64,000 nt of DNA from an uncultured Alphaproteobacteria bacterium (GTDB taxonomy: Bacteria; Pseudomonadota; Alphaproteobacteria; RF32; CAG-239), in assembly GCA_944391415.1 (NCBI GenBank), contig CALXTM010000001.1, forward strand, positions 64,548-128,547, read 5' to 3'. This document shows, piece by piece, positions 4,691 through 50,662 of the stretch (positions within the stretch are counted from its first letter, which is position 1; every line of letters starts with the position of its first letter). The position numbers were made by a program, and so were the translations under genes. Below the pieces are notes generated by a model, which did no database searches, was not told where the DNA came from, and saw only the letters and a list, made by a program, of their open reading frames with translations.

Positions 4691-4717
4691 AAAAATCTCC
4701 CTTTTGTATCAAAAGCA

Positions 4718-5122
4718 AATAAGACAGCCTATAAGCCGGGTTCTGTAATTTGAGCAAGCTCAAACCGACAGCCATTCATCTTGGCTTGATATTGCTATCG
4801 AAGCTCAATGCGACCCACCTCTGGAGTAAGGGGAGAACGCCTTATGTCATCCGGTTTGTATCTTAAAAAAAATACACCTTGATGCCCCTAACTTGGTCTT
4901 GCATCAGGCAGGGTTTACCTTGACCGATGATGTTGCCACCACCGCGGTGAGCTCTTACCTCGCCTTTTCAACCTTACCTGCCGTTTAGACGGGCGGTTAT
5001 TTTCTGTGGCACTTTCCCTTGGGTTGCCCCAGCCGGACGTTATCCGGTGCCTTGTTCCCCTGATGCCCGGACTTTCCTCACCATGGTCAAAGCCATGGCG
5101 CGGCTGTCCGGCCGTCTTATTT
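4718..5122 (-). ncRNA. rnpB: RNase P RNA (bacterial type A)
   Basis: The minus strand reads ...GAGGAAAGTCCGGGC... (reverse complement of 5066-5080) and ...ACAGAACCCGGCTTAT... (reverse complement of 4731-4746), the two conserved P4 strands. The terminal P1 pairing is AATAAGAC/GTCTTATT. About 405 nt in a non-coding gap. Ends are approximate. Confidence 0.9.
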
Positions 5123-16876: not shown

Positions 16877-17049
16877 AAGAGCTTTTAGAGACTGCGTAGT
16901 GCGTAGATTAGCAGGTCTTCCGAGCCAACATTATTGTATAGGGAGCTGTCTCTGAATAAATCGTGGTTTATTTATATGGCACCCACTTATTGACCCGCGG
17001 TTCGTTTCAAGAATGTATTATACGGCTAAACGGTTTCTAGCAATTCTTA
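16877..17049 (+). ncRNA. ssrS: candidate 6S RNA
   Basis: 263-nt non-coding gap directly after zapA, the conserved ssrS location. Long-range closing stem: UUAGAGACUG (16885-16894) pairs with CGGUUUCUAG (17031-17040), and AAGAG (16877-16881) pairs with UUCUU (17045-17049). Ends are approximate. Confidence 0.55.
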
Positions 17050-47688: not shown

Positions 47689-48783
47689 ATGAATATTTTT
47701 ACAAGACCGATTTTGGAAATAAACCTCAAAAATTTATTGAATAATTATGCGGTGCTCGCAAAGTTGGCACATCCTGCCGTACCTGCTGCGGTGGTGAAAG
47801 ATGATGCTTATGGGCTGGGAGCTGAGATTGTGGCAAAGCTGCTGTATGACAAAGCAAACTGCCGCACTTTTTTTGTGGCGCATGCCGTTGAGGGCGCAAA
47901 AATTGCTCCAATGGTGCCTCTGGCTGATATTTATGTTTTGCAAGGTGTTGGCTCCGATTCAATAGATATTTTTGCCCAAATTCCGCATCTGTTACCGGTT
48001 ATAAGCTCGCCGGAGGGGTTGGATTTTTGGCTAAAAAATCGGCCGGATGATGACAGAAAACCGGCAATTCAAATCGAGACCGGGCTTAACCGTCTGGGTT
48101 TTAGAGAAGAAGAGTTAAAAAATTTGAGCCACGATAATCTAAAGATGTTTGGGTTGGTGATGTCACATCTGGCTTGCGGCGATGAAAAAGACCATTTTAT
48201 GAATGCTCATCAGCTGGCTAATTTTGAAAGGCTCAAACACAGCTATTTTCCTAACACCAAAGCAAGCTTGTCGGCCTCGGACGGGGTGTTTTTGGGGACA
48301 AATTTCAGACAAGACATGGTGCGCTTGGGGGCGGCAATGTATGGTATTAACACCGCGCCTTATCGCCCCAATCAGATGCAAAATGTTGTCAGCGTGAAAG
48401 CCCCTCTCTTGCAGGTGGCAAATTTGCCCAAAGGTGATTTTGTTGGCTACTCGGCAACATATCGCGCCAGTTCGAATCGCAAAATTGCGATTGTTTCAAT
48501 CGGATATGGCGACGGTTGGCCGCGCTCTCTGTCAAATGTCGGCAAAGTATTTTTCAAAACAAACGGGCAGATTAGTGAGGCCAGAATTATCGGCAGAGTA
48601 TCGATGGACAATATCATCTGCGATGTCACCGAGGTTTGTGATATAAAAGTCGGCGACACGGCTTATTTGGCTGATGATTTTTATACTCTTGACGAGGTAG
48701 CAATCGATGCGGGAACAATTGCTTATGAAATTATGTCAAGACTGGGCAAAAACCCAAGATTTGACCGCAAATACATAAAATAG
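47689..48783 (+). CDS. alr: alanine racemase
   Basis: 364 aa. PLP-lysine motif AVVKDDAYGLGAE and C-terminal RVSMDNI and YEI motifs. Confidence 0.9.
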   Translation: MNIFTRPILEINLKNLLNNYAVLAKLAHPAVPAAVVKDDAYGLGAEIVAKLLYDKANCRTFFVAHAVEGAKIAPMVPLADIYVLQGVGSDSIDIFAQIPHLLPVISSPEGLDFWLKNRPDDDRKPAIQIETGLNRLGFREEELKNLSHDNLKMFGLVMSHLACGDEKDHFMNAHQLANFERLKHSYFPNTKASLSASDGVFLGTNFRQDMVRLGAAMYGINTAPYRPNQMQNVVSVKAPLLQVANLPKGDFVGYSATYRASSNRKIAIVSIGYGDGWPRSLSNVGKVFFKTNGQISEARIIGRVSMDNIICDVTEVCDIKVGDTAYLADDFYTLDEVAIDAGTIAYEIMSRLGKNPRFDRKYIK

Positions 48784-48804
48784 CGCAGCCGATGAAATAT
48801 ATTA

Positions 48805-48833
48805 TTGTTTTTTTAACATCTAAATGTTATAAT
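48805..48833 (+). promoter_or_regulatory. sigma-70-type promoter (TTGTTT-N17-TATAAT) of Cys-rich gene copy A
   Basis: The hexamers and spacing were read directly from the sequence. The same element is duplicated at 49657..49685. Confidence 0.55.
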
Positions 48834-48880
48834 GATAGCAGTTGATTGATATTATTACAATAACAGCAAGGATCAAGGCG

Positions 48881-49532
48881 ATGAAAAAATTGTTTTTGGG
48901 TTTGTTTGTGGGAACCATGGTAATTGGTGCGACAAATGTTTTTGCTCTAACATGCGGTAAGTTGCCCGACTGTGATGATTTGGGGTACACTTTGACCGAG
49001 GATTTGTGCGAGGGACATACCATGGTGCGCTGTCCTTTTGACACCAGCAAGGTGTTTTGCGGTGTAAGCTGCCCATCTTTGGGGTATCCATATACCGGTG
49101 TGGTCCGTTGTTTTTCCGGTCAGACCAAAAAGATTTGCCCGATTGATGCCAGTTATTTCAAATGCGAAGGCACACCTACCCTACGTCCAGGCCAAAACCT
49201 GTAGCGATTATGGTTACTATACACTGCTAACTGAGGCTAAAGCACACTGCACAAACGGATATACGACAACAAACATAAACCCTAGTGGTATTTCGAAGCA
49301 GACTATATGTTATAAATGTAAGTAAAAAGCAACCGTTACTGCCAAGTCTTGCTCTGATCTTGGCTATCTTTCACTAACGCAAGCGCGTGCTTGCTCGGGT
49401 GGATCTAGTATGGTAGTCGTTAATAATGGCGTGACGAATATTGTTTGTTACAGATGTAAAAGCAGCACCATCGGGACCGGTTCAATAATCGGCGAGACAG
49501 CCGGCAATCGAGATGATGGGCTTAATCCGTAA
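48881..49532 (+). pseudogene. Cys-rich repeat secreted protein, copy A, disrupted (one frameshift plus one in-frame TAA)
   Basis: The frame from ATG 48881 (MKKLFLGLFVGTMVIGATNVFA...) stops at 49202-49204. The +1 frame continues with KTCSDYGYY...ICYKCK, stops at TAA 49323-49325, and the same frame continues KSCSDLGYL...VCYRCKSS... to TAA 49530-49532. The reconstructed ~217 aa parallel the 221-aa paralog. Confidence 0.65.
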
Positions 49533-49554
49533 GATTATCTAAAAAAAACAAAAG

Positions 49555-49584
49555 ACCGACCTTGCCTCAAAGGCCGGTTTTTTG
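49555..49584 (+). terminator. rho-independent terminator
   Basis: ACCGACCTT-GCCTCA-AAGGCCGGT hairpin (one mismatch) followed by TTTTTT. Confidence 0.7.
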
Positions 49585-49656
49585 TTGGCAACCAACGCCA
49601 AACAAGCAGCCGCCAAATCATGGCAAATTAGATATCATCAATATTAAAATATGTTA

Positions 49657-49685
49657 TTGTTTTTTTAATATCTAAATGTTATAAT
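49657..49685 (+). promoter_or_regulatory. sigma-70-type promoter (TTGTTT-N17-TATAAT) of Cys-rich gene copy B
   Basis: Duplicate of the element at 48805..48833, within an ~85-nt conserved upstream block. Confidence 0.55.
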
Positions 49686-49722
49686 ATTTATAGTGGTTGA
49701 TATTATTACAAGGAACAAAGCA

Positions 49723-50388
49723 ATGAAAAAGTTGATTTTGGGTACAGTCTTGGGGTTGTTGATAGTAGGTTTTGGATCTACTAATGCCGATGCGATTGTT
49801 GTAACGCCATGCTCGAAGAATGTGCCGCCAAGCTGCGATGATCTTGGTTATACGATGACAGAAGATCTATGTGGCGACTTGAATATGTTGCCCTGCCCTT
49901 GGGATTCCACCAAGGTGTTTTGTAATTTAACGTGCGAAGATTTGGGATATGAATTGGATGCTACGGGAAACCTGTTTTGCTTTTCACCGGCAGTCAAAAC
50001 TACTTGTCCCATGGATAGCTCTTATGTTAAGTGTGTTTCATCAGGACATGTACAGAATACTTGCCTAACGTTAGGTTATAATTTAACAACTGGAGGTTGC
50101 CAGTCACCGCTGGTTAAGAAGACATGTCCAATAAATAGCACTTATTTCAAATGTGTTAACGAATCATCAAGCGGCGGCGGCAGCGGTGGTTCGACCTGTG
50201 CTGACCTTGGTTATCTAACAAAAAAAGATGCTTGCTCTTGTCAATATGGCTATAAATATGCCGGAGATGATGTTGTTGCCTCTGACGGGCCATGTTATCG
50301 CTGCGGAACACAAAGCGAATGTGTAGTCGGCGGCGGAGTGGTTTGTCTGCGTTGTTATAATAACAACCTGCCGTCTCTTGCCCAATAG
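49723..50388 (+). CDS. Cys-rich repeat secreted protein, copy B (intact, 221 aa)
   Basis: Signal peptide MKKLILGTVLGLLIVGFGSTNADA, then three C..LGY...C......CP.D.S..KC modules, a GGGSGGS linker, and a TCADLGY...CYRCG module. Confidence 0.75.
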   Translation: MKKLILGTVLGLLIVGFGSTNADAIVVTPCSKNVPPSCDDLGYTMTEDLCGDLNMLPCPWDSTKVFCNLTCEDLGYELDATGNLFCFSPAVKTTCPMDSSYVKCVSSGHVQNTCLTLGYNLTTGGCQSPLVKKTCPINSTYFKCVNESSSGGGSGGSTCADLGYLTKKDACSCQYGYKYAGDDVVASDGPCYRCGTQSECVVGGGVVCLRCYNNNLPSLAQ

Positions 50389-50418
50389 TTGTGGATTGTG
50401 TAGCACGGATTGAAGCTA

Positions 50419-50455
50419 GAAGCCCCGTTTGTAAAAAACGGGGCTTCCGATTTAT
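50419..50455 (+). terminator. rho-independent terminator
   Basis: GAAGCCCCGTT-TGTAAAA-AACGGGGCTTC hairpin followed by a T-rich tail. Confidence 0.75.
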
Positions 50456-50662
50456 CTGTTTCCGACGATTTAGAAAAACAAGCCGCTAAAGTTTATTTGG
50501 AGTGTGATTATGGCTTGTTGTTGGTAAATGTCTGTGACGACAGATAAAACTCTTGATTTAATCACATTCCGATTCTAATTTTGTCAAAATTTTGGCTTAT
50601 TTTAATAAATATGTCAACATATAATTTAGGCCTTTATGATAATATTGTGTTAAAACAGATAG

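Follow-up and report, generated by a model that had tools for sequence, protein, structure and literature searches.

We describe a pair of adjacent genes on the + strand in a 64-kb stretch of DNA from an uncultured gut alphaproteobacterium (the window, 64,000 nucleotides in all). The pair is flanked by alr (47689-48783, +) on one side and by a ferritin gene that converges on it (50663-51175/51211, -) on the other. We put at about even the chance that the two genes are old tandem paralogs belonging to a large and so far undescribed family, whose members are exported, modular, braced by cysteines and variable at a C-terminal binding end. An earlier note, made from the letters of this DNA, had placed signal-peptide starts at ATG 48881 (gene 1) and ATG 49723 (gene 2), and both open reading frames (ORFs) indeed open with a signal-peptide-like N-terminus of the form MKKL(F/I)LG. 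The flanks were also as it had described, with alr upstream and the ferritin gene convergent downstream; the Pfam assignments of the flanking genes were taken from identical neighbours on a 96%-identical contig.

Gene 2 (49723..50388, +) is an intact ORF of 221 amino acids (aa) with its stop at 50386-50388, and an identical or near-identical product is present in public assemblies. Its predicted signal peptide (49723-49794, MKKLILGTVLGLLIVGFGSTNADA/IVV, cut at ...NADA/IVV) is followed by a first module, which we call the N module (49810-49923, five cysteines at C30, C38, C50, C58 and C67), by module 2 (49933-50034, four cysteines, C71-C104) and by module 3 (50062-50154, four cysteines, C114-C144). 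A Gly/Ser linker (50164-50193), encoded by a short GGC/AGC-rich run, leads into a C-terminal domain with eight cysteines, the B domain (50197-50355), which reads TCADLGY-x7-C-x-C-QYGY...CYRCGTQSEC-x7-CLRC; the cysteine spacing is C-x11-C-x-C...CYRCGTQSEC-x7-CLRC and includes two CxxC knuckles. All of these features are on the + strand. The three modules expected in this copy were recovered at C38-C67, C71-C104 and C114-C144, with the deviations that module 1 ends in KVFC instead of KC and that module 3 carries N at the D position. A hidden Markov model (HMM) of the N module scored gene 2 modules 1, 2 and 3 at 54.2, 12.0 and 14.3 bits, respectively, and matched these two genes only in a six-frame translation of the window. 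Since first modules score 54-60 bits and internal ones 12-14 bits, the internal repeats are diverged copies of the same unit; in other proteins, internal copies reach 40 bits with the same model.

Neither signal peptide contains, on inspection, a lipobox of the form [LVI][ASTVI][GAS]C (gene 2, ...STNADA/IVVTPC; gene 1, ...TNVFA/LTC). The first cysteine lies 3-6 residues past the AxA-type site in both genes, and likewise in relatives (AYA/LDC, AQA/QTC). Judging from these sequence features, the products look exported and cysteine-braced, as had been proposed.

A scan with a module profile had been suggested for this locus. When the family profile was run with HMMER against 1.84 billion cluster representatives, 713 matched at E<=1e-3, 82 at E<=1e-10 and 13 at E<=1e-30. 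Most of these matches cover profile positions 1-60 only, corresponding to the signal peptide and the first module, so that the first module heads at least 713 protein clusters, a lower bound for the size of the family. Word-indexed searches returned 7 to 33 relatives, none of them named beyond 'hypothetical protein', and literature searches yielded nothing on the N-module family. Among 148 relatives, the columns C1, P, C2, G, C3, C4, P, D and C5 were at least 90% conserved, and the consensus of the N module is C-x3-P-x-C-x2-LGYT-x5-C-x7-CPFD-x5-C (also written C-x5-6-C-x2-LGY-x6-C-x7-CPFD-x5-C). Some relatives, such as P0154, have five cysteines in total. The odd number of conserved cysteines in the N module would leave one thiol for an intermolecular bond or another role.

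Analysis of the regions behind the N module in the 148 relatives showed an Lcl_C/DUF1566 domain in 16, a phage tail collar in 14 and BspA leucine-rich repeats in one; most are unassigned. Other relatives carry further modules and a B domain, as in the window. The Lcl_C domain is absent from both window proteins and present only in other N-module proteins, one of which weakly reaches the NCBIfam Lcl adhesin model. The relative P0176 matches tail-fibre PHROGs (E down to 7.7e-9), and PHROGs match the tail-collar parts of relatives only, never the N module.

All seven genome matches were metagenome-assembled genomes (MAGs) labelled Alphaproteobacteria, from roe deer rectum and other samples, and the synteny at family loci includes the alphaproteobacterial flagellar regulators FlbT and FlaF. 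The MAG SIG59 has four family loci, and the ORFs there carry the module. One SIG59-type paralog (P0005 / L006) lies immediately upstream of the flagellar rod genes flgF and flgG and a cluster of flgA, flgH and flgI (L006:6936-8486 and L001:8929-10479), and other paralogs are not near flagellar genes. Tandem members are frequent, with three in L009, two in L012 and two in L014. The three at L009:4465-7317 are 62-73 nt apart, each with a signal peptide and an N module, and each continues with one or two regions with a WFLPS motif, a motif of DUF1566-type proteins. The representative P0140 is nearly identical to the middle one of these ORFs over a 75-aa N-terminal stretch, and the triplet looks like a small adhesin-type array. 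At L012:4714-5976, a 420-aa protein directly upstream of P0158 has a module near its C-terminus (residues ~393-423 of the ORF, 38 bits), indicating that the module is not strictly N-terminal.

The earlier note could not name the family, and our searches of Pfam, NCBIfam, PHROGs, PDB sequences and structures with Foldseek were likewise empty. Against Pfam-A, NCBIfam and PHROGs, gene 2 and the pieces of gene 1 gave nothing better than E = 0.04, well short of the curated cut-offs, and no curated model covers the N module in the 148 relatives, with none in NCBIfam. A phmmer search and three profile searches against the PDB, made with the whole proteins, the N module and the C-terminal domain, gave no match below E = 0.26. 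The N module was modelled confidently with AlphaFold2 from 49 diverse sequences, with a predicted local distance difference test (pLDDT) score of 89.6. In the model, the 40-aa unit consists of two short helices (10-13, 19-22) and a beta-hairpin (27-29, 37-39). Foldseek searches with this model gave best matches of E = 7.4 in the PDB and E = 2.5 in BFVD; because Foldseek is weak on 40-residue domains, we do not claim a new fold for the N module. The model of the full-length protein was poor, with a pLDDT of 57.5, and its best Foldseek match (E = 1.0) was, like the others, not significant. Profile searches and structure prediction of gene 2 and of a single module, both of which had been proposed as checks, therefore matched no characterised family.

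Comparison of five strains of one species-level lineage showed that the pair varies in a manner quite distinct from its neighbours. In the flanking genes alr and tatD, synonymous divergence (dS) was about 0.02-0.06 and nonsynonymous divergence (dN) 0.002-0.009, with dN/dS of 0.05-0.28, and the ferritin gene was identical (dS 0, dN 0, dN/dS not defined). Corresponding values were dS 0.02-0.25, dN 0.04-0.12 and dN/dS 0.5-1.8 for gene 2, omitting the near-identical pair L002/L017 (dN 0.002, dN/dS 0.29), and dS 0.03-0.17, dN 0.05-0.10 and dN/dS 0.4-1.7 for the N part of gene 1, omitting the near-identical pair L015/L016 (dN 0.004, dN/dS 0.14). The mean pairwise nucleotide difference was 0.001-0.012 in the flanking genes, 0.016-0.028 in the two promoter and leader regions, 0.03-0.04 in the N modules, 0.124 in the part of gene 1 that begins with module 2, past the N module, and 0.164 in the linker plus B domain of gene 2. 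We regard as firm the 10- to 20-fold excess of amino-acid change relative to the neighbours, which is focused on the C-terminal domains and rests on a fixed cysteine scaffold, under conserved regulatory DNA.

The variation in gene 2 is mosaic across 17 protein alleles. Blocks such as LTKKDACSCQYGYKYAGDDVVASDGP and INYSAACKCSYGYKDAG--VTGSDGA alternate, and there are three alternative C-terminal tails as well as three alternative segments just past the signal peptide. All 21 cysteines and the core of module 1 are invariant in these alleles, and the insertions and deletions are in frame. The Gly/Ser linker varies in length, also in frame (SSSGGGSGGS, SSSGGGGGS, SSSGGGGS, SSSGGGSGSSGN). In one public allele (P0192), the stop is changed to Gln, and 51 extra residues are read through the terminator region to give a protein of 272 aa. 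Gene conversion from gene 1 was considered as a source of the C-terminal alleles of gene 2 and rejected, the sequences being unrelated by eye beyond the cysteine motif. Of the adhesin, toxin or host-interaction role that the earlier note had proposed, a host or surface role fits this hypervariability and the adhesin-type fusions, while a toxin finds no specific support.

In the window strain, only gene 2 of the pair is intact. Gene 1 (48881-49532, +) carries two lesions, a frameshift and a TAA stop. Its frame-1 remnant (48881..49204, +) encodes 107 aa plus a stop and comprises a predicted signal peptide (48881-48946, ...NVFA/LTC), the N module (48953-49060, C25-C60, 60.1 bits with the HMM), module 2 (49070-49165, C64-C95, 12.5 bits) and a frameshifted linker that ends at TAG 49202-49204 after 107 codons; the two modules previously assigned to this copy are thus both in frame 1. 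The out-of-frame continuation (49200..49532, +) is in the +1 frame and runs to the original stop at 49530-49532. It contains B-like unit 1 (49200-49322, TCSDYGY...CYKCK) and B-like unit 2 (49350-49457, SCSDLGY...CYRC), with the premature TAA (49323-49325) in frame between them. The second module type that had been described for the pair, TC(A/S)D(L/Y)GY...CY(R/K)C, is accounted for by the B domain of gene 2 and by these two units of gene 1 after the +1 shift.

An exhaustive profile search identified P0018, an intact 213-aa ortholog of gene 1 that reads through both lesion points and occupies the same position, adjoining an intact gene 2, on contig L017. In the alignment of the five strains, the frameshift was seen in the window and in L002 and was absent from L015, L016 and L017. 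The TAA was seen in the window, L015 and L016 (with a 152-aa product in the latter two) and was absent from L002 and L017. The gene 1 of L017 has neither lesion and that of the window has both, and product lengths among the strains are 107, 152 or 213 aa. The occurrence of all four combinations of frameshift and stop indicates that the lesions have been reshuffled by recombination and are segregating in the population. The frameshift sits in a non-repetitive linker (...ACACCTACCCTACGTCCAGGCC...), and the stop allele differs from the non-stop allele at 3 of 6 neighbouring bases. A programmed frameshift was rejected, because the site is not slippery, some strains have the stop instead and an intact allele is known. 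A simple-sequence contingency locus was also rejected, because the linker at the frameshift has no homopolymer or tandem repeat and because of the three base differences near the stop. Gene 1 of the window strain is a null or truncated allele, and we accept decay for gene 1 here.

The regulatory DNA of the two genes is far more alike than the genes themselves. A duplicated TTGTTT-N17-TATAAT promoter with a conserved leader had been claimed, and a 32-nt box, TTATTGTTTTTTTAAYATCTAAATGTTATAAT, was found in exactly two copies in the 64 kb, as compared to none in 100 shuffles. Identity between the copies is 95% over 39 nt but just 66-74% in the matching coding segments. The box of gene 1 (48802..48833, +) has a -35 element TTGTTT at 48805-48810, a 17-nt spacer and an extended -10 element TGtTATAAT at 48825-48833, and that of gene 2 (49654..49685, +) has the same -35 at 49657-49662 and the same extended -10 at 49677-49685. 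Both have the arrangement TTGTTT-N17-TATAAT, in which a single base separates a TG from the -10. It is established that a weak -35 can be compensated for by an extended -10; a generic consensus scan missed both promoters because the -35 matches just 3 of 6 positions. From the consensus, we infer that the boxes function as promoters. An 18-nt leader box, TG(A/G)TTGATATTATTACAA, is 94% identical between the genes. In gene 1 it is TGATTGATATTATTACAA (48843..48860, +), with AAGG Shine-Dalgarno-like sites before ATG 48881, and in gene 2 it is TGGTTGATATTATTACAA (49694..49711, +), with an AAGGAA Shine-Dalgarno site after it. From the promoter of gene 1 to its ATG, only 3 of 100 aligned columns varied in the five strains, and the promoter box of gene 2 was invariant. 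No exact match to the window promoter box was found in metagenome contigs of the Joint Genome Institute (JGI).

The spacer of the gene 1 promoter holds a 6-bp palindrome, TAACAT-CTAA-ATGTTA (48815-48830), and its counterpart in gene 2 (49667-49682) has one mismatch, TAATAT...ATGTTA. This palindrome could be an operator overlapping the promoter. We rejected a regulatory RNA structure in the leaders, which showed no significant fold (z = -0.32 for gene 1 and +0.5 for gene 2), and an Rfam scan was empty at the locus. Each copy has its own terminator-like hairpin, as had been stated. That of gene 1, ACCGACCTTGCCTCAAAGGCCGGT (49555..49586, +), consists of a hairpin at 49555-49578 plus a T run and could work in both directions because of an A run in front of the hairpin. 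That of gene 2, GAAGCCCCGTTT-GTAAA-AAACGGGGCTTC (50419..50447, +), has a 12 bp stem and a weak T tail. Neither promoter in the window is flanked by a pair of inverted repeats, and all five strains have the same orientation.

The proteins of the pair, compared as P0018 and gene 2, are ~37% identical, indicating that the duplication is old and that the promoter identity reflects constraint or gene conversion, and not recent copying. The later duplication that the earlier note had envisaged is thus a real tandem duplication, though not a recent one. Its view of the locus as an inserted accessory element was not supported. The G+C content is 0.43-0.46 in the two genes as compared to 0.42-0.48 in the flanks, there is no tRNA gene anywhere in the 64-kb window, the family has no match in phage genomes, plasmids or IMG/VR, and all of the related strains that were recovered have the genes arranged in this way. 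Elsewhere in the window, RNA genes were seen for class A bacterial RNase P RNA (4716-5119, -, 281.6 bits) and 6S RNA (16886-17040, +, 53.7 bits).

A shared 5' end was also seen in other members of the family. Four unlinked paralogs in SIG59 (L005:5657-6107, L006:5728-6198, L007:5654-6104 and L010:5662-6109) and the ortholog of one of them in a related assembly (L001:7729-8180) share ~450 nt at 81-94% identity. This cassette is composed of ~270 nt of upstream DNA, the signal peptide and the N module, and the 3' parts encode different proteins. It holds two mutually inverted 30-nt palindromic elements, TATAGCATTTAAAC-CACC/GGTG-GTTTAAATGC, 111-121 nt apart, the proximal one being ~45 nt before the ATG. 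These could serve as two operators, or else as a terminator and a hairpin of the 5' untranslated region. The window promoters have no elements of this type. The pair of elements also occurs in an unrelated metagenome contig (L018:28-187), 108 nt apart, before a gene (214-990) that encodes an N module and a tail-collar-like part. The element centres there are swapped relative to SIG59, and whichever way the intervening DNA is turned, it shows no significant similarity. No evidence was seen that the segment between the elements inverts: this second example, compared in both orientations, showed no inverted segment, and the SIG59-type copies all have the same orientation. Judged by these alignments, the shared 5' cassette appears to be a habit of the N-module family.

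These observations can be brought together in the following model. Each gene would be its own transcription unit, read from its extended -10 promoter and leader, and its product would be exported by Sec and cut by signal peptidase I. Oxidative folding in the periplasm would then yield a string of disulfide-stabilised modules of 30-40 aa. The N module, with its five conserved cysteines, would serve as the constant 'handle' of the family, for retention or presentation at the surface or for joining chains through the odd fifth cysteine. The C-terminal part, here the extra modules and the 8-cysteine domain with its two CxxC knuckles, would be a variable working end that contacts a ligand on the host, a phage or another microbe. 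Selection and recombination would diversify this part between strains, with the cysteine scaffold and the regulatory DNA held constant. More tentatively, and with the odds well against it, the five-cysteine N module may be a new surface-display or sorting domain specific to gut Alphaproteobacteria, whose odd cysteine tethers proteins covalently or multimerises them at the cell surface, and which forms with the promoter, leader and signal peptide a recombination-ready 5' end for exchangeable heads (module arrays, Lcl_C, tail-fibre-like).

Several points weigh against our interpretation of the pair as variable exported binding proteins. That the products are exported, disulfide-bonded, located at the surface and able to bind a ligand, and that the N module acts as a handle, are deductions from sequence and comparison, and both predicted signal peptide cleavage sites were placed by eye with the -3/-1 rule. 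The predicted full-length model is too weak to read module packing or cysteine pairing from it. The window proteins carry no recognised adhesin domain, and the housekeeping genes around family members include no partner that recurs from locus to locus, be it a secretion system or an anchor. Finally, dN/dS is not significantly above 1 at these small counts, and relaxed constraint plus recombination, instead of positive selection, could account for the diversity.

This last point leads to the proposal that the pair is a decaying, largely functionless duplicate, in which the diversity reflects relaxed constraint and the promoter is a leftover of duplication or gene conversion. The frameshift and stop in gene 1, the other truncations in other strains and dN/dS values of 0.4-1.8, compatible with weak constraint, all agree with it. 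However, gene 2 is an intact ORF in 17 of 17 alleles with the cysteines and module 1 core unchanged and indels in frame, the diversity is concentrated in one domain and not spread, conservation is much stronger in the regulatory than in the coding DNA, and the family has hundreds of intact members. We therefore consider general decay of the pair unlikely. The null alleles of gene 1 in the population have an on/off character, and the paralogs have a common 5' cassette, as would be seen in surface antigens whose phase variation, like that of classical contingency loci, depends on inversion of DNA or on slippage at repeats; the two mutually inverted 30-nt elements of the SIG59 cassette are also in line with such switching. 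This is nevertheless highly improbable, given that no inverted repeats flank either promoter in the window, that the linker with the frameshift is not repetitive and 3 of 6 bases near the stop differ, and that the sole change in repeat length is in the in-frame Gly/Ser linker. The SIG59-type copies, moreover, share one orientation, and the second example has no inverted segment.

Two further proposals concern the nature of the products. The adjacency of the ferritin gene could be taken to indicate metal homeostasis, with the pair encoding periplasmic or secreted proteins that bind zinc, iron or copper in the manner of zinc ribbons or metallothioneins. In the B domain, CYRCG-x11-CLRC with its two CxxC knuckles resembles a zinc-ribbon knuckle pair, the best profile match in the PDB is to the Fpg/MutM zinc finger (weak, E = 0.45), and there are weak, sub-threshold Pfam matches to zinc ribbons. 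None of these zinc matches is significant, however, and the repeated modules have no CxxC or His motifs. The ferritin gene is convergent, separately terminated and identical between strains, in contrast to the hypervariable pair, family members elsewhere are not beside metal genes, and the same N module heads lectin-like and tail-fibre-like domains. A role in metal binding is thus improbable. We place at a similarly low level the suggestion that the products are secreted antimicrobials or toxins, either with defensin- or knottin-like modules or as polymorphic toxins with a variable toxic C-terminus, aimed at competitors or host cells. Small disulfide-rich modules and a constant N-terminus with a variable C-terminus would be expected of such proteins, and the full-length model gave low-probability Foldseek matches to beta-defensins and domains of the tumour necrosis factor receptor (TNFR) type (E >= 1), but these matches are not significant and that model is unreliable. 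No toxin domain was found in Pfam or NCBIfam. Unlike in systems of the contact-dependent inhibition (CDI) type, no immunity-like gene follows either copy, since gene 1 is followed by its terminator and the gene 2 promoter, and gene 2 by its terminator and the convergent ferritin gene. Loss-of-function alleles of gene 1 also segregate without linked loss of immunity.

Nearly all knowledge of gut Alphaproteobacteria of this type comes from metagenome bins. The locus points to hundreds of exported proteins that share one undescribed, confidently folding module and have very different outer ends, some of them adhesin-like. If the proposed 5' end for exchangeable heads is real, it would constitute a cassette system that generates strain-specific surface repertoires. 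If the module is a handle for surface display, it would provide a sequence tag with which to list what these uncultured bacteria display on their surface, a marker for typing strains and, for structural work, a new small disulfide fold. Even otherwise, the module remains a clearly bounded new domain of unknown function and is worth a database entry.

The kind of protein described here is familiar, being exported, cysteine-rich and fast-evolving with a conserved 5' end, and the domain is absent from every curated library that we searched. The epidermal growth factor (EGF)-like, TNFR cysteine-rich and beta-defensin modules of eukaryotes are also of 30-40 residues with four cysteines, tandem and exported, and the top Foldseek matches of the full-length model are of this type. 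There is no significant match, however, and the cysteine spacing and the LGY and CP-x-D motifs of the window proteins differ from theirs. The fusion of the N module to a tail collar (PF07484) in 14 of the 148 relatives recalls phage tail-collar and tail-fibre proteins. In contrast to these, the window proteins have no such domain, and the N-module family has signal peptides and a housekeeping context and was not found in phage genomes or IMG/VR.

The Vlp/Vsa proteins of Mycoplasma and the Erp/Mlp proteins of Borrelia, the latter with an 'upstream homology box', are variable surface families with a conserved 5' cassette; they are lipoproteins, often switched by slippage or inversion. N-module paralogs likewise share the segment from the promoter to the first mature part and diverge in the rest, with strong variation between strains and common tandem copies. 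They differ in having a leader of the signal peptidase I type, a scaffold of cysteine modules, and no lipobox, slippage tract or inverton. The collagen-like adhesin Lcl of Legionella combines a signal sequence, an N-terminal region by which the exported protein is held on the surface of the bacterium, and a DUF1566 head that binds glycosaminoglycans (PMC11162425). The window proteins have neither Lcl_C (PF07603) nor collagen-like repeats and are not members of that family. By analogy, however, the logic of Lcl would be the same as in our model, with a signal, an N-terminus that holds the protein at the surface and a C-terminal binding head, and 16 of the 148 N-module relatives themselves end in Lcl_C.

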